IMG/VR virus record: IMGVR_UViG_3300020172_003394
Span: 1-64,000 of that record
DNA from: a virus
Strand: one strand, 5' to 3'
DNA: 64,000 nt
Shown one piece after another: positions 2,328 through 49,975 of the stretch (its first letter is position 1; the number at the start of each line of letters is the position of its first letter). The position numbers were made by a program, and so were the translations under genes. Below the pieces are notes generated by a model. The model ran no database searches and was not told the DNA's origin. It saw only the letters and a program-made list of their open reading frames with translations.

Positions 2328-3746
2328 TTAATCATCACTCTTTCTAAGATTAGCGTTCTTGTAGACCAACTGCAGGTTCTCCCGTGTAGTCTTACCACCC
2401 TTGGAGTGGGCGATAATGTGGTCTAGATGGGTCTTATTGCCGTCCAGAACGGCTGACCACGGGATAATCTTACCCGTCAAGGGGCAACTATGTTCCTGCG
2501 TAGTCCAACACGAAATACGGTCGGTCCAATCCCCAAACCGCTTCTTGTCCTTTTGCACGCTCAACGTCCCCTCAGGCAACGTATCCAGTCGAGCAATCAA
2601 CTGCGAAAGTCTAGCCTCACGGACCTCAGCGGTGGTATTACGCTGTGCACCGTAGTAGGTACGTCCGTCCTTACCAAAGGTAATAAAGGTCTTAGTGTCC
2701 TCACGCAGCCTATTGATATTTTCAACGAACCAATCAAAGAACGTTGAATCATCCATAATAGAGATGTTCTGGTTTTGGAGATAGTCAAGGAGCATCACCA
2801 AGTCAAAGAGGGACGCCTTCGACGGAATACCACGCGTCTTACCCGTCTTGGACTCGTATTGAATAATAGCGTCCAAATCCTTTAGGACTTCCTTAAGCTT
2901 CCCAATCTTCTTGGTTTCTGCAGAAGCATCGTTATATGCCGCGTCCTTGTCCTCACGCATGATGTTCGTATCGAATCCATAAGTGATATGCACCAGCGCC
3001 GCCACCAAGAATTCCTCGTGGATACGCCGCTGACAGTTAGGGTCACTAAAGTACAAACGAAGCATCTTCTTGTACTTGTCCCCAAGTAGACGGATGGCAT
3101 CGGCTACCTTACAGACGATAGCGTTACGCTTCTCCTGCGGATTAAGAGACACACCATTGTTAACTGCGATAAACATATCGTGAAGTTCCTGGCGAGTTGC
3201 GGAATTGACCACAAACACAGGGATTTCAATGTTTCTAACATGCTCCTTCAACTTATCGGGTAGACCCTTGTAACCAACAGAATTAGTCGGTTTAAAATTC
3301 ATATACTCAGGAATCGTCATCCCCGACATACGATATTCGTTGTTTTCCTTAAGCTGAAGAATGTTATTGAAGAGGCGCATGAGGGTACGGGTGCGGTTAT
3401 TGCCGTCCACACTAATATACTTGACACCCTCCGAATGGAGCTTAGCGTAGTACTTATAGTCCTCACTATCCTTACCCAAGACCTCCTCGCAATAGTTCAT
3501 GCAAGAAGTGACATCGGCAAGAATGATAGGATTGGGAGTGAATCCGCTAAAGACGGAATTAAGATAGGCAAGTTGACTTACCTTTGACCATCGCTCGGTG
3601 GACTGGAATGCAAGGTCGAGGAAAATCTCGTCCTCATCCTGTCGTGTAGCGAGGTCGTGAATGGTCCACGTGGTTGACACAGTGGTACTGCGCTGCATGA
3701 ACCTCATAAGTTTCTCCTTTGATTCCCGCTTAAATTGTGGAATCAT
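2328..3746 (-). CDS. DUF262 (ParB-like) + C-terminal HNH nuclease, GmrSD-like
   Basis: FQ..RWS and DGNNR DUF262-type motifs; HLDHIIAHSKGG...NLQL...N HNH motif. Confidence 0.75.
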   Translation of the reverse strand: MIPQFKRESKEKLMRFMQRSTTVSTTWTIHDLATRQDEDEIFLDLAFQSTERWSKVSQLAYLNSVFSGFTPNPIILADVTSCMNYCEEVLGKDSEDYKYYAKLHSEGVKYISVDGNNRTRTLMRLFNNILQLKENNEYRMSGMTIPEYMNFKPTNSVGYKGLPDKLKEHVRNIEIPVFVVNSATRQELHDMFIAVNNGVSLNPQEKRNAIVCKVADAIRLLGDKYKKMLRLYFSDPNCQRRIHEEFLVAALVHITYGFDTNIMREDKDAAYNDASAETKKIGKLKEVLKDLDAIIQYESKTGKTRGIPSKASLFDLVMLLDYLQNQNISIMDDSTFFDWFVENINRLREDTKTFITFGKDGRTYYGAQRNTTAEVREARLSQLIARLDTLPEGTLSVQKDKKRFGDWTDRISCWTTQEHSCPLTGKIIPWSAVLDGNKTHLDHIIAHSKGGKTTRENLQLVYKNANLRKSDD

Positions 3747-3974: not shown

Positions 3975-4505
3975 TTACATAAGAAATAATTTAAATGCGA
4001 CCGACATACGTAATTGTTTTGTCCATTTGTTCGGCCCTACTCCACGATGCCAGATTCGTCCATCAAAAATGACCGCGGTGTTGGTGAATGGATACACGTG
4101 ATATAATTCTCCGTCATCCTGTAAGAATTGTGTTTCTCCACCATATTCGTATACATCTACTGGGTCAAGTTCCGTTGGATAATACAAGAACGTATGTGCC
4201 TTCGGGTCGGCTTCATCTGTATGGAATACTCCGTCTTGACCAAAGGATTGTCCATTTCCATAAATACGGTCAGCACGATATTTATTACCTGTTAATTCTT
4301 CAATTCGTTTTAGTAACGTACTATTGAAGAATTCTCGTTTTTCCAACTCCCACATAGACCAACATAAAATACCTTTCTCGGCATCGAGTGATGACCAATT
4401 ATCAAAACTCCACTTGCGCTCCGACAATACAGCTAAAATGTTTTTGTGTTGTTCTGAAGTGAATACGTTATTAAATTTTCTAAAATATTTATTTCCAAAG
4501 TTCAT
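3975..4505 (-). CDS. 2OG-Fe(II) oxygenase
   Basis: HTD...H...R motif; GGET; start placed at ATG after GAGG. Confidence 0.85.
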   Translation of the reverse strand: MNFGNKYFRKFNNVFTSEQHKNILAVLSERKWSFDNWSSLDAEKGILCWSMWELEKREFFNSTLLKRIEELTGNKYRADRIYGNGQSFGQDGVFHTDEADPKAHTFLYYPTELDPVDVYEYGGETQFLQDDGELYHVYPFTNTAVIFDGRIWHRGVGPNKWTKQLRMSVAFKLFLM

Positions 4506-4619
4506 AGAAACCTCATTAAAAAACAATGTAATATGAAAAATAATAAACTGATGCGATAATGTCAAGCCCTTCTTATATGTATATATGTTAACACAAACAC
4601 CTAATTATTGGAGATAGGT

Positions 4620-5444
4620 ATGTTACTCAAAGTCGGTTCAAAAGGTGATGATGTAAAGAAGTTACAAGAAAAACTCGGCTTAACCGCCGATGGTTCCTTT
4701 GGTACTGGCACTGAGAAGGCTGTTAAAGAATGGCAAAGTAAGAATGGGTTGACCGCAGATGGTATCGTTGGTGAAGGAACGTGGTCAAAGATGATGGGTG
4801 CAGCACCAGTCGCTGCAGCAGCTCCAGTCCCATCGGGTGGTCCTATGAATATTAGTAAGTTAAAAGGACACGTGCCTGATGCAGTTATCACACAACTTCC
4901 AGAAGTAATGGAAAAGTTCCAAATCAATACCCCATTACGTATCGCACACTTTTTGTCACAATGCGGACACGAAAGTGGAAACTTCAAGGTTGTTAACGAA
5001 AACTTGAACTATGGTGCAAAGGGCTTGTTAGGATTATTCAAGAAGTATTTTCCAACCGAAGCAAAAGCTTTAGAATACGAACGCAAACCAGAAAAGATTG
5101 CAAATCTTATCTATGGTGGTCGTATGGGTAATGGTCCAGAAGCAAGTGGTGAAGGATTTAAGTTCCGTGGTCGTGGATATATCCAACTTACAGGTAAGGA
5201 CAACTATTCTGCATTTGACAAGGTTGTTGCAGAAGATATCGTAACAACTCCAGATTTAGTTGCAACTAAGTATCCATTACTTTCGGCAGCATGGTATTGG
5301 AACTCACGTAAGATTAACGCAGTATGTGACCAAGGTGCAACTGAAGAAGTGGTAAAGAAGGTTACCAAGTTAGTAAATGGTGGTGATATTGGATTAGCTG
5401 ACAGATTAAAGCACTTCAAGGAATTCCACTCACTCTTGGCATAA
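4620..5444 (+). CDS. endolysin: peptidoglycan-binding domain + GH19 glycosidase
   Basis: GSKGDDVKKLQ/DGIVG PG-binding; AHFLSQCGHES, FRGRGYIQLTG, VNGG GH19 motifs. Confidence 0.92.
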   Translation: MLLKVGSKGDDVKKLQEKLGLTADGSFGTGTEKAVKEWQSKNGLTADGIVGEGTWSKMMGAAPVAAAAPVPSGGPMNISKLKGHVPDAVITQLPEVMEKFQINTPLRIAHFLSQCGHESGNFKVVNENLNYGAKGLLGLFKKYFPTEAKALEYERKPEKIANLIYGGRMGNGPEASGEGFKFRGRGYIQLTGKDNYSAFDKVVAEDIVTTPDLVATKYPLLSAAWYWNSRKINAVCDQGATEEVVKKVTKLVNGGDIGLADRLKHFKEFHSLLA

Positions 5445-5519
5445 TTTAGTCTATTTATAATATTGAAGGGTTCTTTATAAAGGTCTGTGTAATGGTATTC
5501 GTCATTAAACGGAGAATTT

Positions 5520-6008
5520 ATGAAGAACTCTTTTTATGCTGCGGTGTGGGGTGCATTTTGGCTCCTTGCTAATCCAGCACAAGCACAAGATAAATCCATC
5601 TTTGTAGAAAAGGTAACCAACTCTGTTGTGATTGGGCCTGTTGCAGGAAATCGTGGGCTGGAATTTGGGGTGAAAAACATCCTAGAAGAATTGTTACTCG
5701 AAAAAGAGTATGACTTAATACCAAATTCCACAACTAGATTACAAGTAGAAATTATATTTCTGGATGTTTTAACTACAAAGAAAAATGTCTCCGTATTCCA
5801 CTCAAACGCCGAAACAGTGGTTATTCGTATGCGTGGAACAATGGTTGTTAATGGTAAAAAAGGGAAACCTGTTATTGTTGAAGAAGGTTCCTCGGAAATT
5901 TCAATGTCTACATTATTAATTGATGCAGGCGGAAAATTTAACCAAACAAGTCTTTCAAATGCACTAAAAAAGGCAGCAGAAAGTCTAATTAACAAACTTA
6001 CGGAGTAA
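5520..6008 (+). CDS. exported protein, short CsgG/TolB-N-like fold candidate
   Basis: signal peptide (AQA); NRGLEFGVKNILEE resembles NRVGLGVSNIVIE of 9004-9723. Confidence 0.5.
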   Translation: MKNSFYAAVWGAFWLLANPAQAQDKSIFVEKVTNSVVIGPVAGNRGLEFGVKNILEELLLEKEYDLIPNSTTRLQVEIIFLDVLTTKKNVSVFHSNAETVVIRMRGTMVVNGKKGKPVIVEEGSSEISMSTLLIDAGGKFNQTSLSNALKKAAESLINKLTE

Positions 6009-6009
6009 T

Positions 6010-7725
6010 ATGAAAAAAATATTAGTTGCAGTAATGCTTTTACTTGCGATGAAAGTAGAAGCACAACCTAGTCTGTGGTTCGGTAGTAACGTAATAGACA
6101 AAAACATCAATGGTGGTGTTATCGTAAAAAATGACACCATTGAATTGGAAGTGAAAATTAATCCGAACATGTCCAACGTGCGTTCGGTGTATTTTGATTT
6201 TCAACATCAAAAAGATGCCATCACCTTGTTGAGTATTACACGAGGGCCGGCAATCCCCACAAATGCCTCAGTTACCATTGACAACTATTATTATCCCAAT
6301 TGTAAATTTAACAAGAATGCACAAAACACAACCAGTGACGGTTGGGTGAATTGGCAGTTTGCAAGCTATGAATGTAATTCATCTACTGTACCCTATGCCG
6401 CAATTAACCGTGTAATGGTCAATGTGTCTAGTACGCAAAATCTTGAACAAGCAACGTATGTGAAATTACGTTTTCGTGTAACCAACGTGGATGCTGGATT
6501 CCCATATGATTCCGTTTACATGAACTTTGCCGTTGCCTATGCAGCAACAGGTGCAGACATGCGACCAACGGGTAATACTACACCAACTCGTGCATGGGTT
6601 CAATTGCAACCTGGTGCCAACAACTTAGTTACAGGACAAATCAAACACAGTGAAAACGTGTCGGGGGCTGTTAAGTCAGCGTTGATGTTATCGGTGACAA
6701 ACACAGAAACACCGCCCGTGCAAATCACTAGTATGGTGTTAGGAACCGCAGGTACGTTTGGATTTGCACAACAACTACAAACAAATACCCCATACAGATT
6801 ACGATTGAACATTCCTTCTGAACAATTGTCACCGTTAAGTTTATCGGCAACCACGGTGTCTGATTACACCATGGCATTCCAAGAATTTTTGACACAAAAT
6901 CTTGACGGAACATTCAAAAACAACAACATTACTCGTGGCATCAAGTATTGGGCAGCTGATGTAAACAACAATGGTAATTTAGATGGGGGTGACTTGCAAT
7001 TGTTATTCAATGCGGTAACAGGATTGGATACCATTATGAAACCTGCACCTCAGTGTGGAGCAAATTGTTTCATGTCACTTCCAATCATGACTACATCGGC
7101 GTTTGATGGGTTAACATTGACTTCGTGGAAGAACCTTACGTTGGGAAGTACATCATTTATTCCCCTTACAACCACAACGGCAGACCAACAACTATCTATG
7201 AATTATGTGTTGAAAGGAGATGTGAATTTATCTCATTCATCTCCTGTAACTGCACAACAAGCAGCAGCAATGCGCATGGGGTCATTGGTAGTTCCTGGGG
7301 CAAGTAGCATTGATGTCAATGTCAATAACATAGTAGTAACAACAAACACCATCAATATTCCCTTCACCATTGACACACGTGGAAACAAACTCACGGCGTT
7401 GCAATTTGAAGTAAAATATGATGCAACAAAAGTAAAGTTTGAAAAAATGGAAGTAAACACACCTAGCTGGATTTCATTTGTTAACCCAACAGGTAATGTA
7501 ATTCGTTTCGGCGCACTTGATCGTGAATTGAAAAATACATTGTCGGGCACTAACTTAGTTCCATTTAGATTACATTTTTCAGCACTACAAGCAGGTGTTG
7601 ATTTGAACACCAGCATTGAAATTGTTCCTGTAATGGATGCCGCCAATGATAAAGGTAATCAACTCGGCATCAACTTCAATACTAACGTCATCAAGTTAAT
7701 TGGTGCAAACTTCTTCAGAAACTAA
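6010..7725 (+). CDS. exported protein with cohesin-like domains and dockerin/EF-hand-like motif
   Basis: signal peptide; AADVNNNGNLDGGDL and KGDVNLS Ca-binding-like motifs; C-terminal ALQFEVKYD cohesin-like sandwich. Confidence 0.65.
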   Translation: MKKILVAVMLLLAMKVEAQPSLWFGSNVIDKNINGGVIVKNDTIELEVKINPNMSNVRSVYFDFQHQKDAITLLSITRGPAIPTNASVTIDNYYYPNCKFNKNAQNTTSDGWVNWQFASYECNSSTVPYAAINRVMVNVSSTQNLEQATYVKLRFRVTNVDAGFPYDSVYMNFAVAYAATGADMRPTGNTTPTRAWVQLQPGANNLVTGQIKHSENVSGAVKSALMLSVTNTETPPVQITSMVLGTAGTFGFAQQLQTNTPYRLRLNIPSEQLSPLSLSATTVSDYTMAFQEFLTQNLDGTFKNNNITRGIKYWAADVNNNGNLDGGDLQLLFNAVTGLDTIMKPAPQCGANCFMSLPIMTTSAFDGLTLTSWKNLTLGSTSFIPLTTTTADQQLSMNYVLKGDVNLSHSSPVTAQQAAAMRMGSLVVPGASSIDVNVNNIVVTTNTINIPFTIDTRGNKLTALQFEVKYDATKVKFEKMEVNTPSWISFVNPTGNVIRFGALDRELKNTLSGTNLVPFRLHFSALQAGVDLNTSIEIVPVMDAANDKGNQLGINFNTNVIKLIGANFFRN

Positions 7726-8099
7726 TGAAAAACTTTCTTACTTATTCAACATTGGCGGTAATTTTGCTTGGATGTTCTGACAACATACCAATGGCGCCGA
7801 CATCAACGTACCCGATTGACTTGGGGGTTCCCTCAGTATCAATGAACGTTGTCTCAACATCAGGTCTTACAGTAAATAACACATACACACTTACTATGAA
7901 CGTGACCCAAGGGGCAATGTATAGTTTACAACTCACACATATCAATGGAAACATTGTACATAATCATCCATTCGTCGCACAAACAGATCAGGTAACGGTT
8001 ACATTGAATTACGGAAATGTTCCTTCTGGAGCATATGACTTGTATCTTATGAACACCTCAGGACAAGAACTTAAGGTACCCGTTATCATTAAACATTAA
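7725..8099 (+). CDS. lipoprotein with T9SS-CTD-like Ig fold
   Basis: lipobox LLGC; ends NVPSGAYDLYL...KVPVIIKH. Confidence 0.55.
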   Translation: MKNFLTYSTLAVILLGCSDNIPMAPTSTYPIDLGVPSVSMNVVSTSGLTVNNTYTLTMNVTQGAMYSLQLTHINGNIVHNHPFVAQTDQVTVTLNYGNVPSGAYDLYLMNTSGQELKVPVIIKH

Positions 8100-8112
8100 T
8101 AAGGAGAACAAT

Positions 8113-8388
8113 ATGTCAGAAGAATCAGGAAGTGGTGGATTAAAAAATGCCATCATCGGTCTAGTCACAATTATCGTAACGGCAATTGCAGGTGTTGTTG
8201 GTAAGAAAATGATGGGTGACGATGAAGCGTCAGCACCTGCCCCGGCGGTTGCCCCTGCTCCAATCATCAACTTAAACTTGGAAAATAACAACACAGTTTC
8301 AGGTGGTGGTAATGGTGCAGCAGCAACCCCTGCTCCCAAAGCAGCACCCAAGAAGGACGACCACTTAAAGAAAGAACCCCTCTGGTAA
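8113..8388 (+). CDS. single-TM membrane protein, Ala/Pro-rich
   Basis: AAGGAG SD; one hydrophobic helix. Confidence 0.7.
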   Translation: MSEESGSGGLKNAIIGLVTIIVTAIAGVVGKKMMGDDEASAPAPAVAPAPIINLNLENNNTVSGGGNGAAATPAPKAAPKKDDHLKKEPLW

Positions 8389-8392
8389 CCCC

Positions 8393-8716
8393 GTGACAGA
8401 ACAAAAAAAAACATCTAACTTGGATAGCAAATTTCAAGAATTATTAAACAAAACTATGACACGCCGTTGGAACATCACGGCAATAGTATTACTCACATTT
8501 TTATTCATTGCGGTTGGTATCACAACAGCAGTAAAAAGTGGAACGCTTCTTGACCAAGAATGGAAAGAAATTCTTCTGTTGATGCTTGGTGCGTTCATTG
8601 GGTCATACAGTAAAATTATTGATTATTGGTTCTCAGATACAGATAAAGACAAAATGTTAGTACAAAAGATGGATGAAGAAGATGGACAATCGTTCTCAAA
8701 CACTTTAGGAGGATAA
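8393..8716 (+). CDS. 2-TM holin-like membrane protein
   Basis: two hydrophobic helices then IIDYWF and charged tail; lysis context. Confidence 0.55.
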   Translation: MTEQKKTSNLDSKFQELLNKTMTRRWNITAIVLLTFLFIAVGITTAVKSGTLLDQEWKEILLLMLGAFIGSYSKIIDYWFSDTDKDKMLVQKMDEEDGQSFSNTLGG

Positions 8717-8717
8717 C

Positions 8718-9011
8718 ATGGACGCAAAACAAATTCAAAAAGGATTGTTATCAAAGTTTTCACAAATCTTTCAAGATAACAATGAATATAACGAAAAAAC
8801 TGTAATTGGTTTCTTATCATTTGCAGTTATGACTTTATATTCTTTGGTAGACCTCGTAACAGGTGTTATGGGAATGCCATTAGAAATTCACGAATTCGTG
8901 TATAACTCATTTATGATTATTACATTAGGTTCGTTCGGTATTGCAGGATTGGAAAAGTTTTCACCAACAGCAGTTAAACAAGCAAAAAGTACAGATGAAA
9001 CCGATGCGTAA
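8718..9011 (+). CDS. 2-TM holin-like membrane protein
   Basis: two hydrophobic helices ending GLEKF; AGGAGG SD. Confidence 0.5.
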   Translation: MDAKQIQKGLLSKFSQIFQDNNEYNEKTVIGFLSFAVMTLYSLVDLVTGVMGMPLEIHEFVYNSFMIITLGSFGIAGLEKFSPTAVKQAKSTDETDA

Positions 9012-9723
9012 TGTTATACTCGCACTTGGTGTGTTTCTATTACCTGAGGTGTTGTCCGCTCAGGTAATAGGGAAAACACAAACAGAACAATACAAGGCAG
9101 CATTTGAAACAGGTGTAGACCCCACCATCTTCCGTGATTATCGCGGCAAGACTATTCCTATTCAAGTGTTGCAACTTGGCATTAACGAAGAAGTGTATGC
9201 CATGTATCCTGAATTGAAAGATAATCGTGTTGGGTTGGGGGTTTCTAACATTGTTATTGAATTCATGGAAGAAACCAATCGCTTCACATTCACAGAAGAA
9301 AAAACAGAAATCAAAAACAGAATGGTGAAGCAATTTCAAGCATCACAATCAGGCATCACTGCCAATCAATTAGATGGGCGTGGCAAGATTATGTTGGCTC
9401 GGTACTTTGCCTACATTGAAGTGTATGATTTTTCGGTGTCAGAAGATGAAACCATTAACATGAAAGACGGTGTGAAGAATACCGTTGTAACTCGTTTAGG
9501 ATTACAAGTACGTTTTGTAGATGCCGAGACGGGACAATTCTTCACCGGGTCAGGATTGGGAGAAGCAAAAACAGTTCGTGAACTCACCCTTATGAATGAT
9601 GATAACTTTGGTGAAGTAAAGTTTAATCAAAGTACCATCGGTATTGCCACGAAAAAAGCATTGGAAATTGCCACATCAAAAATTGTCACCCGGATGATTA
9701 ATCGCGGTATCTACGAAAAATAA
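9004..9723 (+). CDS. CsgG/HfaB-family protein
   Basis: signal peptide; ETNRFTFTE, LQVRFVDAETGQ, terminal helix typical of CsgG fold. Confidence 0.7.
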   Translation: MRNVILALGVFLLPEVLSAQVIGKTQTEQYKAAFETGVDPTIFRDYRGKTIPIQVLQLGINEEVYAMYPELKDNRVGLGVSNIVIEFMEETNRFTFTEEKTEIKNRMVKQFQASQSGITANQLDGRGKIMLARYFAYIEVYDFSVSEDETINMKDGVKNTVVTRLGLQVRFVDAETGQFFTGSGLGEAKTVRELTLMNDDNFGEVKFNQSTIGIATKKALEIATSKIVTRMINRGIYEK

Positions 9724-9726
9724 CCT

Positions 9727-10341
9727 ATGAAAAAATTATTATTGTTATTGTTGGTTGCACTGCCATTAGAAGCACAAGATACAGTTCGTATTAAACACAG
9801 TAATTATGAAACTGTGTTTTCCAAGAGCAAAAAATATCCTGTGCTTGTGGAATGGTGGGTGACAACAAATAAAATTAAATGCACAAACCCTGTCAAACGA
9901 AATGATAAGTTTATTCCTGACCCCAAGCTCCCCGTAGAAAGCAATGTGGGTGCCGAGTATGTGGGGTCAGGGTTTGACAGAGGACATCTTGCCCCAGCAG
10001 CCGACCAACAATGTTTGGGTGATGCTGTAATGGCGGAAAGTTTCTATTTCACAAACATGGTGCCACAATATCCTGGATTAAATCGTGGGCAATGGAAAGC
10101 ATTGGAGGACCATATACGTAAGTTGGCATTACAACATGATAGTGTGTTTGTACAAGCAGGATGTGTGGGAGAAAAACAAAAAGTGAAATCACTCTCGGTT
10201 CCTACTCATTGTTGGAAAACCGTATATGTACAGGCTACAAAAGAAACAACATATTACGTATTTGAAAATGTTCCACAAAAAACCATTTCGTTTACTACGC
10301 ACATAGTTTCTAAAGACAGTGTAGTGAATCTACGTAGATGA
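9727..10341 (+). CDS. secreted DNA/RNA non-specific endonuclease (NucA/EndoG family)
   Basis: DRGHLAPA, TNMVPQ..LNRGQWKALE, VPTHCWK motifs; signal peptide. Confidence 0.92.
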   Translation: MKKLLLLLLVALPLEAQDTVRIKHSNYETVFSKSKKYPVLVEWWVTTNKIKCTNPVKRNDKFIPDPKLPVESNVGAEYVGSGFDRGHLAPAADQQCLGDAVMAESFYFTNMVPQYPGLNRGQWKALEDHIRKLALQHDSVFVQAGCVGEKQKVKSLSVPTHCWKTVYVQATKETTYYVFENVPQKTISFTTHIVSKDSVVNLRR

Positions 10342-11564
10342 AATTTATAAAAATATTAGTTACGAGTTTGATAGGAATATTAATATACTCGTCAAATGTA
10401 AAAGCACAATCTATTGTACAAACCTGGATAGACCCGTGTACAGGTACAATGCAAACGGCCACATTTCCAATAAGTAATATAGGAGTGGTCATTATGTATC
10501 GCGGTGCCTCAAAAATATTTACGGCACAACAAGCCGCTGCGGGTGAATTGCAGGCATGGATTAATCAAGTTACTGTTGTTATCCCATGTTCAATTGTAAA
10601 TACTCCAGTAATTACGCAAACCGCAGCACAAGCGGCAACACAAGCGGCAAGTGCAGCAGCATCCGCCGCGGCATCGTCGGCAGCATCGTCAGCGGCATCA
10701 GGTGCAGCATCAGAAGCCGCATCATCCGCGGCATCAAGTGCCGCAAGTGGTTCGGTGAGTGCCGGTGCCACCTCATCTCCACCAACAACAAGTTCTTCAT
10801 CATCCGGCAGTAGCACGTCAAGTTCTAGTAGTTCAAGTAGTTCATCAGAATCAAAATCAGAATCAAAATCAGAGAGTAGTGAAAGTAAAGAAGAAAAGAA
10901 AGAAGAAAAGAAAAGTAGCGGCGCCAATAATCCTATCATGGTGGCATCGGACTTTACGGCAGGACAGAATGCCGACGGGAGTGTGGCGGGATTGTTTACG
11001 GTAGGGATATCGCAAAGTAGTTTGGCTGGCGATAAAAGTTATGGGGCAACAGCAATCGTTTGGACATCATTTGACCAAGCCGCCTTATCGGCAAGTTATA
11101 CCAAGATGGCGTTTAAGACAGGTAAATTACATGCGGTTCATAACTATTCATCAACCTATGCCTATTTGAACGGCATTCATATGACGTTGGTGGGATATAC
11201 GTGGGTAAAACCTGATGAAAAATGGGGTGTGTATGGGGTGAATGCAGGTATGATTACGTTGTTTATGCCTGATGGGGGTGGGGTCAACTATTCAACAAGC
11301 TTGGTTGGGTTCTGGATGTATAAACCTATTGAGCTAACGAAAAGAGCAAAAATATCACCACAGATGTTTGTGATAGGAAGTCCTATGAGTTACAATGAAA
11401 TTACTAAACTTACCACAAGTGCCGTAGGAAGTGTGATGATAGGTAACAGTATGGATTATATGATTACCCGACGATTTGGTGCCACAGCAGCCCATCGTAT
11501 GTTGATATCACCCAGTCAAAAACCCTTAAATTTCTTATTAATTGGCGGTCGTATGATATTGTAG
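10338..11564 (+). CDS. exported protein, Ser/Ala-rich linker and C-terminal beta-barrel-like domain
   Basis: signal peptide; low-complexity linker; amphipathic beta-strand pattern. Confidence 0.55.
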   Translation: MKFIKILVTSLIGILIYSSNVKAQSIVQTWIDPCTGTMQTATFPISNIGVVIMYRGASKIFTAQQAAAGELQAWINQVTVVIPCSIVNTPVITQTAAQAATQAASAAASAAASSAASSAASGAASEAASSAASSAASGSVSAGATSSPPTTSSSSSGSSTSSSSSSSSSSESKSESKSESSESKEEKKEEKKSSGANNPIMVASDFTAGQNADGSVAGLFTVGISQSSLAGDKSYGATAIVWTSFDQAALSASYTKMAFKTGKLHAVHNYSSTYAYLNGIHMTLVGYTWVKPDEKWGVYGVNAGMITLFMPDGGGVNYSTSLVGFWMYKPIELTKRAKISPQMFVIGSPMSYNEITKLTTSAVGSVMIGNSMDYMITRRFGATAAHRMLISPSQKPLNFLLIGGRMIL

Positions 11565-11647
11565 TTATAAATACAACATAATCAAACTAGGTTCACCTAA
11601 TTATATAAGCAGGTATGTAATTAATTTACTTATTTTTGGAGGTATGT

Positions 11648-12019: not shown

Positions 12020-12793
12020 ATGATTAAAAATTTAAGTTTTGCAGAACAAAGTGCGTTGTTTGCACGTTTTAGTAATTTAGCATATAAAACCCCAAAAGAA
12101 GCAGAAAAATTATTTAAGAAAGCAGGATTTGAACAAGTAGTATACTATGGAAACAAAGGTAGTAACGCATATGTAATTGAAAGTGAACATGATGTAGTAG
12201 TTGTATGTCGTGGTACCGAAGTCCAAGAATGGAATGATGTCAAGGCTGACCTTAGTATTGCATTAACACCTTCTCGTTCGGGTATTGGTAAAGTTCATCG
12301 TGGATTTCGTACTTACACTGATAAGATATGGGAACCAATTAAGTCACATATCAGTCCAATTAAAAATAAGGATATTTGGTTTACTGGACATAGTTTAGGT
12401 GCAGCAATGGCAACCTTGATGGCTCGTCGTTGTGCACTCGACATTAGTGTGAGAGTTCCAACCCTATTTACGTATGGAAGTCCACGTGTTGGCAATCGTG
12501 CATATATCAATGAATTTAATGGACGCATCACACATCATCGTTGGGTCAATGATGGAGACATCGTAACAAAAGTTCCATTTGCTCCGATTTACTATCACTG
12601 CGGCACCATGCATCATATTAGTAAAAATGGTAAAGTGACTGTAGAGTACGATAGAAAAATTAGTTGGACTCGTGTTTTATCATTATTCTTACCGCATGGT
12701 ATCTTTAAGTTAATCTCTGGTGATACGAAAGACCACTCATCAGTTGAGTATAGTGAAAAACTGTTATTCTGGTCGCTTAACGATATATCATAA
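12020..12793 (+). CDS. lipase class 3 (alpha/beta hydrolase)
   Basis: RGTE, VHRGF, GHSLGAA, TYGSPRVG, DIVTKVP. Confidence 0.92.
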   Translation: MIKNLSFAEQSALFARFSNLAYKTPKEAEKLFKKAGFEQVVYYGNKGSNAYVIESEHDVVVVCRGTEVQEWNDVKADLSIALTPSRSGIGKVHRGFRTYTDKIWEPIKSHISPIKNKDIWFTGHSLGAAMATLMARRCALDISVRVPTLFTYGSPRVGNRAYINEFNGRITHHRWVNDGDIVTKVPFAPIYYHCGTMHHISKNGKVTVEYDRKISWTRVLSLFLPHGIFKLISGDTKDHSSVEYSEKLLFWSLNDIS

Positions 12794-12867
12794 TATCTAT
12801 TATTAACTATTAAGACGGGGGTTGACATTCGTTGACCTCCGTTTTACTTTTATGTAGGAGGTGTAAT

Positions 12868-13383
12868 ATGCCAAACCCTGTTATTATGCTATCGTTGTTG
12901 GTGTCACTACAACAACTAAAAATTAATAAGATGCCACTTCCAGCACGAGGGATACGGGACAGTACACAAAACTATATTGTGTTACACAACGATGGTTCAA
13001 ATATGACTGCAAGACAAACGCATGGTGTTTTAAGCAGTCGCGGATTGTCGTATCATTATTTCGTGGCACGTGATGGAAAAATATATGAATATGTAAATCC
13101 AAAATACATCGCGCGTCATACAGGTGTGTCTTTTCACAAGGGAATGTTAAACTGGAATAATTTTAGTATAGGTATTTGTTTACAAGGTATGAATGGTTTG
13201 ATATATAGCAACCAACAATACGAAAGTTTAGGTAGGTTGATACAGCAATTACACAACAGATACCCAGACAGTAAATCTCGACCAATACTGACACACGCAG
13301 AAGTTGCATTTCCACCTGGACGTAAAAAAGATCCTGGTGAAACATTTGATTTAACTAAAATAAAATTAGATAGTATACAATAG
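12868..13383 (+). CDS. N-acetylmuramoyl-L-alanine amidase (Amidase_2)
   Basis: IVLH, SYHYFV..DG, SIGICL, THAEV, RKKDPG. Confidence 0.88.
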   Translation: MPNPVIMLSLLVSLQQLKINKMPLPARGIRDSTQNYIVLHNDGSNMTARQTHGVLSSRGLSYHYFVARDGKIYEYVNPKYIARHTGVSFHKGMLNWNNFSIGICLQGMNGLIYSNQQYESLGRLIQQLHNRYPDSKSRPILTHAEVAFPPGRKKDPGETFDLTKIKLDSIQ

Positions 13384-13395
13384 GGGATAAAGGTT

Positions 13396-14409
13396 ATGAT
13401 TAGATACGCTGATGTAATTGTAGATTTACAGGCAGGTGATACGGGGAAAGGGAAGGTTGCTCACGCACTTGCAAATGAGTATGACCTTATCATTCGTTAT
13501 AATGGTGGATCAAACGCTGGTCATACTGTGTATCACGATGGAAAGAAAGTTGTGACGCATCTTGTTCCTATTGGTGTATTGTTCGGTATTCCAAGTGTGA
13601 TTGGATTTGGATGTGTAGTAAATATAAAAAAGTTGGAAGAAGAAATTAAAGATTTAAATAACATTGGTTTTAAGACCGATGGACTTATCTTCGTTGATGA
13701 ACGTTGTCACTTGGTATTGGGCAAACACATCGAAGAAGATAGCTCGGATAACAAGATTGGAACAACCAGACAAGGAATTGGCCCAACGTATCGTGATAAG
13801 TATAACCGCACGGGTATACGGATGAAGGACTTGGGTATCCAACCTTCATTATTATTTTCCGTAATTGATACTTATGAGTTATTCCACAATAAACATAACG
13901 ACTGGCGTATCTTATGTGAAGGTGCGCAAGGTTTCCAAATTGATATTGATTGGGGTGATTATCCATATGTTACCAGCTCGCATTGCACGATTGGGTCAGC
14001 GGTTCTGAATGGAATTCCTCCACAGAAAATACAGAAGGTCATCGGTACTATGAAAGCATACGAAACTTATTCTGGATTTAAAACCACGTTCCAAGATGAA
14101 AACGACCCTATCTTACAAAAGATACAAGAAGTTGGTGGGGAAGTCGGAGCCACCACAGGTCGTAAGCGTAAAGTTCGTTGGTTAGACCTTGATGGTGTTA
14201 TTAAAGCAATCAACATTAATGGAGTCACGGACCTTATCATTAATAAAGCAGATATATTAAAGGAAGTAGGTATATTTAATTATGTATACAAAAATGAATT
14301 ACATAAATGTTATATACTAGATGATATGATTTCAGAAATAGATTGTATATTATATGATAACACCGAAGTAAAAAATATTATTTGGTCAATGACGCCTAAT
14401 GGAATTTAA
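13396..14409 (+). CDS. purA: adenylosuccinate synthetase (short type)
   Basis: GDTGKGK, GGSNAGHT, GTTRQGIGP, EGAQG, YPYVTSS, GATTGRKR. Confidence 0.93.
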   Translation: MIRYADVIVDLQAGDTGKGKVAHALANEYDLIIRYNGGSNAGHTVYHDGKKVVTHLVPIGVLFGIPSVIGFGCVVNIKKLEEEIKDLNNIGFKTDGLIFVDERCHLVLGKHIEEDSSDNKIGTTRQGIGPTYRDKYNRTGIRMKDLGIQPSLLFSVIDTYELFHNKHNDWRILCEGAQGFQIDIDWGDYPYVTSSHCTIGSAVLNGIPPQKIQKVIGTMKAYETYSGFKTTFQDENDPILQKIQEVGGEVGATTGRKRKVRWLDLDGVIKAININGVTDLIINKADILKEVGIFNYVYKNELHKCYILDDMISEIDCILYDNTEVKNIIWSMTPNGI

Positions 14410-48031: not shown

Positions 48032-49975
48032 ATGGCTACAACCAATAACGTATTAAATAAACTAAGTGTAACACCAAAGGAAGTAAGTTATCTCAACAAA
48101 TCTTTCGTAGATTTTAAAGGTGACTTAATTACCTTTATTAAAACGTACTATCCTACAACCTGGACAGACTTCAACGAAGCAAATCCAGGAATGATTATGT
48201 TGGAATTGGCCGCTTATGTAGGTGATGTATTATCTTTCTATGTAGATAATTCGTTTAAAGAAAATTTATTGGCATATGCAGAACAAGAAGGAAATATTAT
48301 TACTATTGCGCAAGCTATGGGATATAAACCAAAAACTATAATTCCAGCAACAGCAGAAGTATTAATTTCACAAGCGGTTCCGGCACTTGGTGCGGAGGAC
48401 GGATATATTCCCGACCCAAATTATTTTCTAAAAATCGACAGAAATTCAACGATGTCTACATTAGCACCAAATGTAGTAACATTCAGAACAACAGAAATTG
48501 TAGATTTTGCAGATCCAACGGACAGAATTGTTGCTCCACGACAATTGGATTCTGTAACGTTGTTACCCATAACTTATTTGGTTACCAAAAAAGTTAAAGT
48601 TATTGCAGGTGATATTAGACAAGAAACATTTACCTTTGGTGACCCGGAAAAATTTTCTACAATTACAATTGGGGATATTAACATAACCACAATTAGTGAA
48701 GTAGTTGATGCGGACGGATATAAGTGGAATGAAGTTGAATATCTAGCACAAGATACAATTATAGACGACAAAGAGGTGTCTTACACCGCGTCGGTAAGTG
48801 AATCCATAAGTCCTTCATACGCAATTAAATTTAGAACAGTTCCGCGTAGATTTGTTACACGACTTACACCAGACAAAAGAACACAATTGATATTTGGTTC
48901 TGGTAGAGGTAATGCCTCCGAAGATATTGTCTATCTTGACTCACAACAAGTAGCAAATACAGAATATGGTACACGGCTAGCAAGTGTGTCACTAAGCAAT
49001 ACCGATTTGTTAAATACGGATAACTTTGGATTGGCACCAGCAAATACGACCATCACTGTTACGTATTTTACTGGTGGTGGAGTAGATAGTAACGTATCAT
49101 CAGGAACTATTTTACAAACGGGACAATTAAACATCTTAAATAGAACCACGGAATTTAATCAAACAGAACTTGATTTATTTAATGATATCGTAAGCACAAT
49201 AACCGTATTTAATGAAATGCCAGCGAGAGGTGGGCAAGATGGTGAAAGTGTTGAAGAAATTCGGCAACGTGCATTAGCAAGTTATAGTGCGCAAAATCGT
49301 GTTGTAACTCGTAGAGATTACGAAGCAAGAACCTTGGCAATGCCAGCACAATTTGGAGCAATTGCAAAGGTATTTGCTATCTCCGACAGTTTACAAAGTA
49401 AAATTCAAGAAGAAACAACACCACAACAGCAAGATGATACTATTCGACAATATGTTGAAAATTATCCAAAACCAAATGCAATAAATTTGTATGTGTTGGG
49501 ATATAATCAAAGTAAAAAAATTACCACACTAAATAGTTTGGTCAAGTCAAATCTGCAACAATATCTTTCACAATATAGAATGTTAACAGATCAAGTAAAT
49601 ATTCTTGACGCATTTGTAGTGAATATTGGTGTAAATTTTGACATTACTGTGTTCAAAAATTACAATATGTCTGACGTTATAGCTGTATGTCTTGGTACCA
49701 TCAAAGATTATTTTGATATTGATAAGTGGAATATTAATCAACCACTTCGTTTAGGTGACTTATCATTATTATTAAATGCACAAGATGGTGTGCAAAGTGT
49801 TAATAGTGTCGAAATTGTTAACAAATATTTCTTTAAGAATGGTAGAGATTATCAACTATATCGTTATGACATCGCAGAAGCAACCGTTGATGGAGTTATC
49901 TATCCATCACTTGACCCGTGTATCTTTGAAATTAGATATCCAGAAGATGATATCGTAGGAAGTGCAAGACAATGA
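48032..49975 (+). CDS. baseplate wedge gp6/J-like protein
   Basis: DFNEANPGM, AYVGDVLSFY.D, GG.D.ES.EEIR, QNRVVT..DY. Confidence 0.9.
   Translation: MATTNNVLNKLSVTPKEVSYLNKSFVDFKGDLITFIKTYYPTTWTDFNEANPGMIMLELAAYVGDVLSFYVDNSFKENLLAYAEQEGNIITIAQAMGYKPKTIIPATAEVLISQAVPALGAEDGYIPDPNYFLKIDRNSTMSTLAPNVVTFRTTEIVDFADPTDRIVAPRQLDSVTLLPITYLVTKKVKVIAGDIRQETFTFGDPEKFSTITIGDINITTISEVVDADGYKWNEVEYLAQDTIIDDKEVSYTASVSESISPSYAIKFRTVPRRFVTRLTPDKRTQLIFGSGRGNASEDIVYLDSQQVANTEYGTRLASVSLSNTDLLNTDNFGLAPANTTITVTYFTGGGVDSNVSSGTILQTGQLNILNRTTEFNQTELDLFNDIVSTITVFNEMPARGGQDGESVEEIRQRALASYSAQNRVVTRRDYEARTLAMPAQFGAIAKVFAISDSLQSKIQEETTPQQQDDTIRQYVENYPKPNAINLYVLGYNQSKKITTLNSLVKSNLQQYLSQYRMLTDQVNILDAFVVNIGVNFDITVFKNYNMSDVIAVCLGTIKDYFDIDKWNINQPLRLGDLSLLLNAQDGVQSVNSVEIVNKYFFKNGRDYQLYRYDIAEATVDGVIYPSLDPCIFEIRYPEDDIVGSARQ

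Follow-up and report, generated by a model that had tools for sequence, protein, structure and literature searches.

Partial 'curli' (type VIII secretion) gene clusters, consisting of csgF, csgG and neighbouring genes, have been described in the T4-like pelagimyophages of the HTVC008M group and in the OM43 phage Melnitz, and the roles proposed for the phage CsgG are uptake, 'sibling capture' and lysis timing (PMC7029224, PMC9004378). The 'Cryophage' (Bellas et al. 2020) has variable genes encoding C-terminal sorting domains for type IX secretion (T9SS), and their products are thought to use host secretion (PMC7468147). The subject of the present analysis is a block of nine genes (g1 to g9) at positions 5520-11564 of a 64,000-nucleotide stretch, here called the window, which is taken from an 86-kilobase (kb) IMG/VR virus record (IMGVR_UViG_3300020172_003394) with an estimated completeness of 48%. 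The source is an uncultured T4-like phage of Flavobacterium-type bacteria, and a T4 gp6-type baseplate wedge protein is encoded at 48032-49975 of the window. A full-text literature search found no paper on this gene module; with what has been published, namely the csgG/csgF clusters of pelagimyophages and the T9SS cargo of phages, it has only the CsgG fold in common.

The block contains a core of six to seven gene families that travel together in large phages (g1, g2, g4, g5, g7, g9 and usually g6). Judging from sequence signals and structure models, the predicted destinations of their products cover every layer of the envelope, with g4, g5 and g6 at the inner membrane, g1 and g7 in the periplasm and g9 in the outer membrane. 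The explanation tentatively preferred here, at slightly less than an even chance, is that the products assemble across the envelope and hold or present variable lectin-cohesin proteins at the surface of the infected Bacteroidota cell. A sequence-only reading of the window had described nine tightly coupled genes, and all nine open reading frames (ORFs) are present, on one strand, each with an export or membrane signal:

5520-6008, + strand: g1, exported protein of 162 amino acids, a short and distant relative of g7 assigned to a CsgG/LptE-like fold class; core
6010-7725, + strand: g2, secreted multidomain protein of 571 amino acids; fast-evolving part of the core
7725-8099, + strand: g3, lipoprotein of 124 amino acids with the lipobox LLGC; accessory
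8113-8388, + strand: g4, bitopic inner-membrane protein; core
8393-8716, + strand: g5, protein of 107 amino acids forming a hairpin of two transmembrane helices, truncated in the clade of the window; core
8718-9011, + strand: g6, protein of 97 amino acids with two transmembrane helices; frequent part
9004-9723, + strand: g7, divergent homologue of CsgG without lipidation; the module's anchor gene
9727-10341, + strand: g8, secreted non-specific DNA/RNA endonuclease; lineage-specific insert, not core
10338-11564, + strand: g9, tethered 12-stranded outer-membrane barrel; core

The junctions range from -8 to +13 nucleotides (nt): g1 and g2 are 1 nt apart, g2 and g3 overlap by 1 nt, g3 and g4 are 13 nt apart, g4 and g5 4 nt, g5 and g6 1 nt, g6 and g7 overlap by 8 nt, g7 and g8 are 3 nt apart, and g8 and g9 overlap by 4 nt. 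As read from the sequences, cleavable signal peptides ending in Ala-Gln are present in g1, g2, g7, g8 and g9, the lipobox in g3, one transmembrane helix in g4, and two each in g5 and g6. The window's own copies of g1, g4, g5, g6, g7 and the g9 barrel matched nothing in Pfam, NCBIfam or PHROGs.

A scan of viral contigs of 4 to 311 kb found at least 80 loci, and co-occurrence was counted over 33 non-redundant viral loci, each spanning 18 kb or more. The gene g7 is present in all 33, g1, g2, g4 and g9 in 32 each and g5 in 31; co-occurrence in relatives had been named beforehand as a point on which the proposal depended, and these six families were found together in 31-33 of the 33 loci. The g6 family is present in 18 loci, with a look-alike family (c15) in 9 more, and the g3 family in 8, with analogous lipoproteins (c9) in 12 more. 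Any other family occurs within approximately 10 kb in at most 16 of the 33 loci; the g8 nuclease and the lipase are found in five each and the amidase in three. The core thus excludes the nuclease, the endolysin, the lipase and the amidase. The loci mostly agree in gene order, and the median identity to the proteins of the window is 69% for g5, 67% for g7, 46% for g1, 40% for g9 and 28% for g2. Some lineages add further membrane proteins to the module, and several encode an extra exported protein of approximately 290 amino acids that ends in Gln-Phe, appears barrel-like by eye and has no Pfam match (L010:9078-9950, L025:6094-6987; in L010 and L012 it lies between g6 and g7). Pfam searches with the accessory families c19, c24 and c25 found nothing.

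One carrier is in culture, the Flavobacterium phage vB_FspM_immuto (host Flavobacterium sp. LMO8), and the function of the module can therefore be tested directly. Its genes gp015 to gp019 are, in a row, homologues of g2 (with a cohesin domain), g4, g7, g9 and g1; the row follows nuclease and C-type lectin genes amid replication and nucleotide-metabolism genes, and the endolysin gene is approximately 6 kb away. A megablast search with the window region against cultured phages gave no match, as did a tblastn search with g2. The relatives of g7 at E ≤ 0.001 number 6294, many of them named CsgG by JGI, and fall into 237 clusters at 50% identity. With more than 6000 near relatives of g7 in public data, nearly all from uncultured phages, the module is among the commonest unexplained gene sets of large freshwater and marine Bacteroidota phages. 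A scan of genome contigs returned only one contig of a metagenome-assembled genome, 2.7 kb long.

The g7 protein, which the sequence-only reading had called a full CsgG-family member, is a true but divergent homologue of CsgG, as judged from profile comparisons and its modelled fold. The single sequence of the window matches no Pfam, NCBIfam or PHROG family and found nothing relevant in a PDB search. When 39 sequences of the family were aligned (alignment A1), the resulting profile retrieved E. coli CsgG from the PDB (E 6.5e-5), 21 of the 39 members matched the Pfam CsgG family (PF03783; best E 1.9e-17), and hhalign aligned the family with E. coli CsgG over 227 columns at a probability of 95% (E 3.6e-8). 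The AlphaFold2 (AF2) model of g7 has a predicted local distance difference test score (pLDDT) of 82.6, and a Foldseek search with it gave CsgG for each of the ten best matches (E 5e-7). The same fold, set beforehand as something the protein at 9004-9723 must possess, was recovered by VIA-align with a Z score of 12.1 (root-mean-square deviation, rmsd, 3.5 over 160 aligned residues), approximately 2 Z units above the next-best fold, PelC (Z 10.1). PelC, a FlgT-type ring protein (Z 9.1) and LptE (approximately Z 8), which follow CsgG in that comparison, are ring or plug partners of barrels; TraT follows at 7.

The likeness to E. coli CsgG (PDB 4uv2, 4uv3, 6l7a), which is the best structural match of g7, extends to the Tyr-Pro of the constriction loop, which aligns and is nearly invariant (P69, L71); of the loop residues Tyr51, Asn55 and Phe56, however, Asn55 corresponds to lysine and Phe56 to a gap. 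In contrast to CsgG, g7 has no cysteine for N-terminal lipidation: no lipobox was found in the copy of the window or in 54 distinct phage orthologue N-termini (from 82 loci), all of which instead carry signals of the signal peptidase I type ending in (A/G)Q, whereas distant cellular relatives do carry the cysteine. In CsgG, a nonameric ring, two long amphipathic hairpins (TM1 and TM2) build a 36-stranded barrel. For g7, AF2 predicts long hairpin strands at residues 134-152 and 156-173; in the hhalign alignment, hairpin 1 is approximately 5 and hairpin 2 approximately 8 residues shorter than in E. coli CsgG, and the tips are rich in Asp, Glu and Lys with no clean hydrophobic face. The missing lipid anchor, which in CsgG secures the place in the outer membrane, together with hairpins of reduced length and higher charge, means that these results do not establish g7 as a secretion pore of the CsgG type. 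No CsgA, CsgB, CsgE or CsgF partner was found in the block.

The resemblance to the pelagimyophage and Melnitz clusters lies in the setting: a T4-like phage, a gene of the CsgG family that shares a small operon with genes for other exported proteins, no curlin genes, and a variable non-structural region. The CsgG of HTVC008M, however, is canonical, with 39.7% identity to E. coli CsgG and a lipobox, neither of which can be said of g7, whose relation is apparent only at the profile level (hhalign probability 86% to HTVC008M CsgG, compared with the value given above for the E. coli protein). The pelagimyophage clusters bear csgF, but neither CsgF nor CsgE has a homologue in this block, and the hosts are SAR11 and OM43 bacteria rather than Bacteroidota. 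The sequence-only reading had likewise seen no curli subunit, and Pfam and hhalign found no CsgE, CsgF or curlin; hhalign gave probabilities of 0.1-0.3% when the g1 and g9 families were compared with E. coli CsgE and the g4 and g9 families with CsgF. Homology with the neighbours of HTVC008M csgG was considered and rejected: neither gp017 nor gp018 of that phage is related to g9, and there is no relation between its CsgF (gp014) and g1.

Like g7, g1 is predicted to be cleaved by signal peptidase I and to have a CsgG-type fold. Its earlier description as a short CsgG-like protein gains some weight from the hhalign comparison of the g1 family (alignment A2) with the g7 family (69%, E 4.3e-5, 120 columns); the g1 family has no direct match to E. 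coli CsgG, and its profile retrieved nothing from the PDB. The atlas neighbours of g1 are 92-100% viral, and one of them has the domain PF03923 (Lipoprotein_16) in 23% of its members. A protein of approximately 75 amino acids with a single transmembrane helix and the motif W-K-I-D-G..N-I-W-Y has its own gene immediately ahead of g7 in some phages (L060:9554-9784) and is fused to the N-terminus of g1 in others (L046:3357-4019, L074:2560-3222), linking g1 to the inner membrane. Among cellular genomes, the nearest relatives of g7 are tandem pairs of CsgG-like genes (L094:7188-9930, L091:7303-8633) that resemble the pairing of g1 with g7; they are approximately 40% identical to a Nitrospinota-type CsgG/HfaB query (P0159), itself approximately 30% identical to g7, and the pair of L094 is followed by a gene for a 403-amino-acid protein with a FlgT_N domain. 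The neighbourhoods of distant cellular relatives contained no homologues of g2, g4, g5 or g9 and offered no functional lead.

The C-terminus of g9 (residues 200-408) is, according to structure prediction, a 12-stranded outer-membrane barrel, in agreement with the initial description of a beta-barrel-like protein with a Ser/Ala linker, and it is encoded on the 3′ side of g7 in nearly all loci. From the N-terminus, the protein consists of a signal peptide, a small domain with two invariant cysteines 50 residues apart (C34 and C84; alignment A3), an Ala/Ser-rich helix, a disordered linker rich in Ser, Lys and Glu, and the barrel, so that a flexible tether of approximately 110 residues separates the periplasmic cysteine-pair domain from the barrel. 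In the AF2 model, DSSP assigns 12 long strands to residues 200-407; pLDDT is mostly 85-92 in the barrel, 55-61 in the helix (residues 90-131) and below 50 in the linker. Foldseek matched the barrel to NalP, NanC, FapF and KdgM, and the VIA Z scores were 23.5 for NalP, 21.1 for EspP, 20.6 for KdgM (rmsd 1.8 over 166 residues) and 20.2 for FapF. The N-terminal domain matches gp018 of immuto at 99.2%.

Two kinds of known barrel system resemble this arrangement. The type Va autotransporter translocators NalP (1uyn) and EspP and the Pseudomonas functional-amyloid channel FapF (5o65) have 12-stranded barrels as g9 does, and in FapF, as in g9, a disordered linker connects the barrel with an N-terminal periplasmic domain. 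Unlike members of either family, g9 has no Pfam or profile match to autotransporters or FapF, a profile search of the PDB giving only low-complexity noise, the helix that AF2 sets close to its barrel is of low confidence, and its two invariant cysteines would argue against a translocated passenger. The pairs PelC-PelB (5t0z, 9h80) and LptE-LptD offer a parallel to g7 with the barrel gene that follows it, given the small alpha/beta fold of g7 that also matches PelC and LptE; however, PelC and LptE are lipoproteins, unlike g7, the comparison detected no sequence homology, and the pairing of g7 with g9 is suggested by synteny only.

The three membrane proteins are of different kinds. In g4 (alignment A6), an acidic N-terminus and one transmembrane helix are followed by a periplasmic spacer rich in Pro, Ala, Gly and Asn and an invariant C-terminal Trp; gp016 of immuto, which begins with MSEE, has a transmembrane helix and ends in Trp, is recognizable by eye as its homologue. 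The g5 protein (alignment A5) is a two-helix hairpin with 34 invariant positions and both termini predicted to be inside, and its atlas neighbours are 93-100% viral. Most of its relatives have 175-240 amino acids owing to an added C-terminal domain (e.g. L049:7354-7947) that the clade of the window has lost; it is predicted to be cytoplasmic and contains Asp-rich DxDGDG repeats and a C..H..CxxC motif, which may bind calcium or zinc. The charged C-terminus of g6 makes it holin-like in topology only. Both g5 and g6 fit the topology of class II holins (two transmembrane helices and a charged C-terminus), and neither matched a Pfam or PHROG family, of holins or otherwise.

Between g7 and g9, the nuclease gene g8 is as first described, its product having a signal peptide, the motif DRGH and matches to Pfam Endonuclease_NS (9.1e-40) and to PHROG 14168 (nuclease).

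The candidate for display is g2. The sequence-only reading had assigned it cohesin-like and dockerin-like parts. A C-terminal cohesin-like domain at residues approximately 447-529 scores below threshold in the copy of the window (Pfam Cohesin 1.1e-3, 19.6 bits against a cut-off of 24.1) but is found at E ≤ 0.01 in 16 of 28 orthologues (best 3.1e-7); among the 28, 12 have Lectin_C and seven have the T9SS sorting domain Por_Secre_tail (best 1.7e-8). The dockerin-like part is weaker: there is a calcium loop at residues approximately 309-345 (Dockerin_1 0.068; PDB dockerins 0.012-0.07), a second half-site (GDVNLSHS) can be seen by eye, and one of the 28 orthologues matched Dockerin_1 (0.0011). The gene is often present in two copies, the second a paralogue in some lineages, and it diverges far faster than g5 or g7 (by the median identities given above), as expected for an exposed binding part. 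The T9SS-like C-terminal fold attributed to the lipoprotein g3 is faint in Pfam (Por_Secre_tail 0.047, DUF3244 0.0035, both below threshold), and g3 possibly has an immunoglobulin- or sorting-domain-like fold; in other lineages it is replaced by one or two analogous lipoproteins, and those of family c9 have lipoboxes and match Por_Secre_tail at 0.003. With the Cryophage, the module shares the T9SS sorting domain in those seven g2 orthologues, but the Cryophage cargo consists of enzymes and a PA14 protein, for which the paper reports no partners of the CsgG-like, barrel or cohesin kind (PMC7468147), and it has the sorting domain, in contrast to the g2 of the window, in which none was detectable.

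Three pointers suggest that the host phylum is Bacteroidota: the Ala-Gln ends of the signal peptides, the T9SS sorting domains in relatives and the relationship to a Flavobacterium phage. In Bacteroidota, the 'Q-rule' places glutamine as the first mature residue after signal-peptide cleavage, which fits all five cleavable signal peptides of the block, and every phage orthologue of g7 has glutamine at mature position 1.

The sequence-only reading had placed the block inside a lysis locus, with an endolysin of glycoside hydrolase family 19 (GH19) before it and a lipase and an amidase after it. These neighbours are all present:

4608-5444, + strand: g0, endolysin with PG_binding_1 and GH19 domains, more probably starting at the ATG at 4620; neighbour, not core
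12020-12793, + strand: g11, esterase/lipase with no signal peptide; neighbour in this lineage only
12832-13383, + strand: g12, peptidoglycan amidase; neighbour in this lineage only

The endolysin matches Pfam PG_binding_1 (7.6e-14) and Glyco_hydro_19 (8e-7) and PHROG 181 (endolysin, 7.8e-69), the lipase PHROG 21992 (esterase/lipase, 7.6e-20) and the amidase PHROG 1794 (amidase, 6.1e-15); g9 is followed by a small ORF, the lipase gene, the amidase gene and a short adenylosuccinate-synthetase-like gene. The placement holds for this lineage but not in general. In 17 of 82 loci a GH19 endolysin is no more than approximately 10 kb away from g7, and by tblastn this is so in 10 of the 33 non-redundant loci (seven as called ORFs). 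With the GH19 endolysin, the amidase and the endolysin of immuto as probes, just 10 of the 33 have any lysin at that distance, which is a lower bound; the other 23 have no probed lysin there, and one large clade is flanked by an RNA ligase, a polynucleotide kinase and an ATP-dependent protease. The position of the endolysin varies from before g1 to after g9, directly after g5 (L047) or directly after g6 (L055), which keeps a link to lysis alive. The earlier statement that no clear spanin pair is visible agrees with the block and with the absence of any PHROG spanin match; two-component spanins combine an i-spanin whose periplasmic domain is a coiled coil with a small outer-membrane lipoprotein gene embedded in or following it, and here the periplasmic part of g4 is no coiled coil, and the lipoprotein g3 is encoded upstream of it.

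If the module serves the cell surface, as tentatively preferred here, g7, perhaps with g1, would form a ring where the g9 barrel sits, beneath the outer membrane, much as PelC does at PelB and LptE at LptD, and the Pro/Ala spacer of g4 and the tether of g9 would connect ring and barrel to g5 and g6 in the inner membrane. The assembly would anchor, or aid the export of, g2 proteins, which evolve fast, along with g3 and other small lipoproteins, and the surface of the infected cell would gain new sugar-binding or self-docking proteins, the likely pay-off being that competing phages are kept out or that the cell adheres to particles or to its sisters. In the lineage of this phage, the module has been joined to endolysin, secreted nuclease, lipase and amidase. 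Such a display function is supported by the independence of the module from the probed lysins in 23 of 33 loci, by its co-inheritance and its recurrence in immuto, by the signs of a Bacteroidota host, by the folds of g7 and g9, by the lectin, cohesin and T9SS domains of g2 and the fusion of a membrane protein to g1, and by the precedent for T9SS cargo in phages (PMC7468147). Several observations weigh against it. Since g7 has no lipid anchor, we can only infer its position at the outer membrane; the dockerin is weak, the g2 family profile reaching PDB dockerins at E 0.012-0.07 over one loop; no T9SS sorting domain (Por_Secre_tail) was detected in the window's own g2; 10 of 33 loci have the endolysin beside or inside the module, and in two of them it comes straight after g5 or g6; and the holin-like topology of g5 and g6 fits a role in lysis. 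Of the phage-built outer-membrane machine first proposed, the co-inherited, envelope-targeted set with its CsgG fold and barrel stands; a secretion pore is not supported. If surface re-dressing is confirmed, lytic phages would have a new way to control adhesion or exclude rivals, and would be shown to use host type IX secretion systematically.

Lysis is the alternative that deserves most thought, unlikely as it is on balance: g5 and g6 would be of holin/antiholin type, and g4 and g9, with rings of g7 and g1, would be spanin-like, breaching the outer membrane or setting the time of lysis in place of canonical spanins. The block of the window does lie between an endolysin and a lipase with an amidase, no spanin pair was seen in it, and where the endolysin directly follows g5 or g6 the order is the classic one of holin and endolysin; g5 and g6 are small, with two helices, both termini predicted inside and charged C-termini, and a timing role has been proposed for the CsgG of Melnitz (PMC9004378). 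Were this so, the module would stand in for the recognizable spanins that these phages lack. However, most loci have no probed lysin nearby and one clade has RNA ligase, kinase and protease genes as flanks, g5 and g6 belong to no holin family in Pfam or PHROGs, the periplasmic part of g4 is rich in Pro, Ala, Gly and Asn instead of forming a coiled coil, it is not obvious what a lectin/cohesin protein bearing T9SS sorting domains would do in lysis, and six to twelve genes are far more than known outer-membrane disruption needs. A rather unlikely possibility is that the CsgG-fold ring, the tethered barrel and the inner-membrane proteins make up a self-contained trans-envelope apparatus of a new type, used either for a spanin-independent breach of the Bacteroidota outer membrane at lysis or as a dedicated means of exporting and anchoring lectin-cohesin proteins. 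It would be surprising if the module were instead an outer-membrane channel, a KdgM/NanC-like porin (g9) or CsgG-like pore (g7) that raises nutrient uptake or releases enzymes such as the nuclease. The best fit of the g9 barrel by rmsd is the oligosaccharide porin KdgM, uptake has been suggested for the pelagimyophage CsgG (PMC7029224), and the nuclease gene sits between g7 and g9 in this lineage; but an N-terminal domain tethered by 110 residues is foreign to porins, the nuclease accompanies just five of 33 loci, g7 has the shorter, more charged hairpins and no lipid anchor, and g2, g4, g5 and g6 would be left unexplained. Least of all is it to be expected that ordinary virion or assembly proteins have been mistaken for exported ones: virion parts such as the baseplate wedge are encoded elsewhere in the window, but the module proteins include five cleavable signal peptides, one lipobox and one outer-membrane barrel fold, none has a structural PHROG match (g8 matching only a nuclease family), and the immuto block sits among replication genes.

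The late-type promoter motif that had been noted upstream of the block does not hold: the motif at 5452-5459, TATTTATA, is TATAAATA in reverse complement and thus on the wrong strand for g1. A T4 late promoter was rejected, as TATAAATA occurs in the window no more often than chance predicts (8 copies against 7.05 expected). Scans of the region for sigma-70 promoters and terminators were at background level. A + strand copy of TATAAATA is located at 11566-11573, 2 nt past the stop codon of g9 and approximately 60 nt before the next ORF, and the strongest terminator-like hairpin of the region (12811-12846, + strand, 16 pairs) is on the 3′ side of the lipase gene.

Upstream of the block, two ORFs are on the opposite strand: 2328-3746, encoding 472 amino acids with an HNH-endonuclease C-terminus, and 3975-4565, encoding 196 amino acids that match PHROG 274 (labelled 'DNA endonuclease V'). 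Downstream of the amidase gene, the adenylosuccinate-synthetase-like gene (13396-14409, + strand) encodes 337 amino acids and matches PHROG 1211 ('2-aminooxy adenylosuccinate synthetase', 6.5e-70). PurA has approximately 430 amino acids, and PurZ-type enzymes are linked to DNA with 2-aminoadenine (Z base); being shorter than PurA, this product may be a PurZ-type enzyme.

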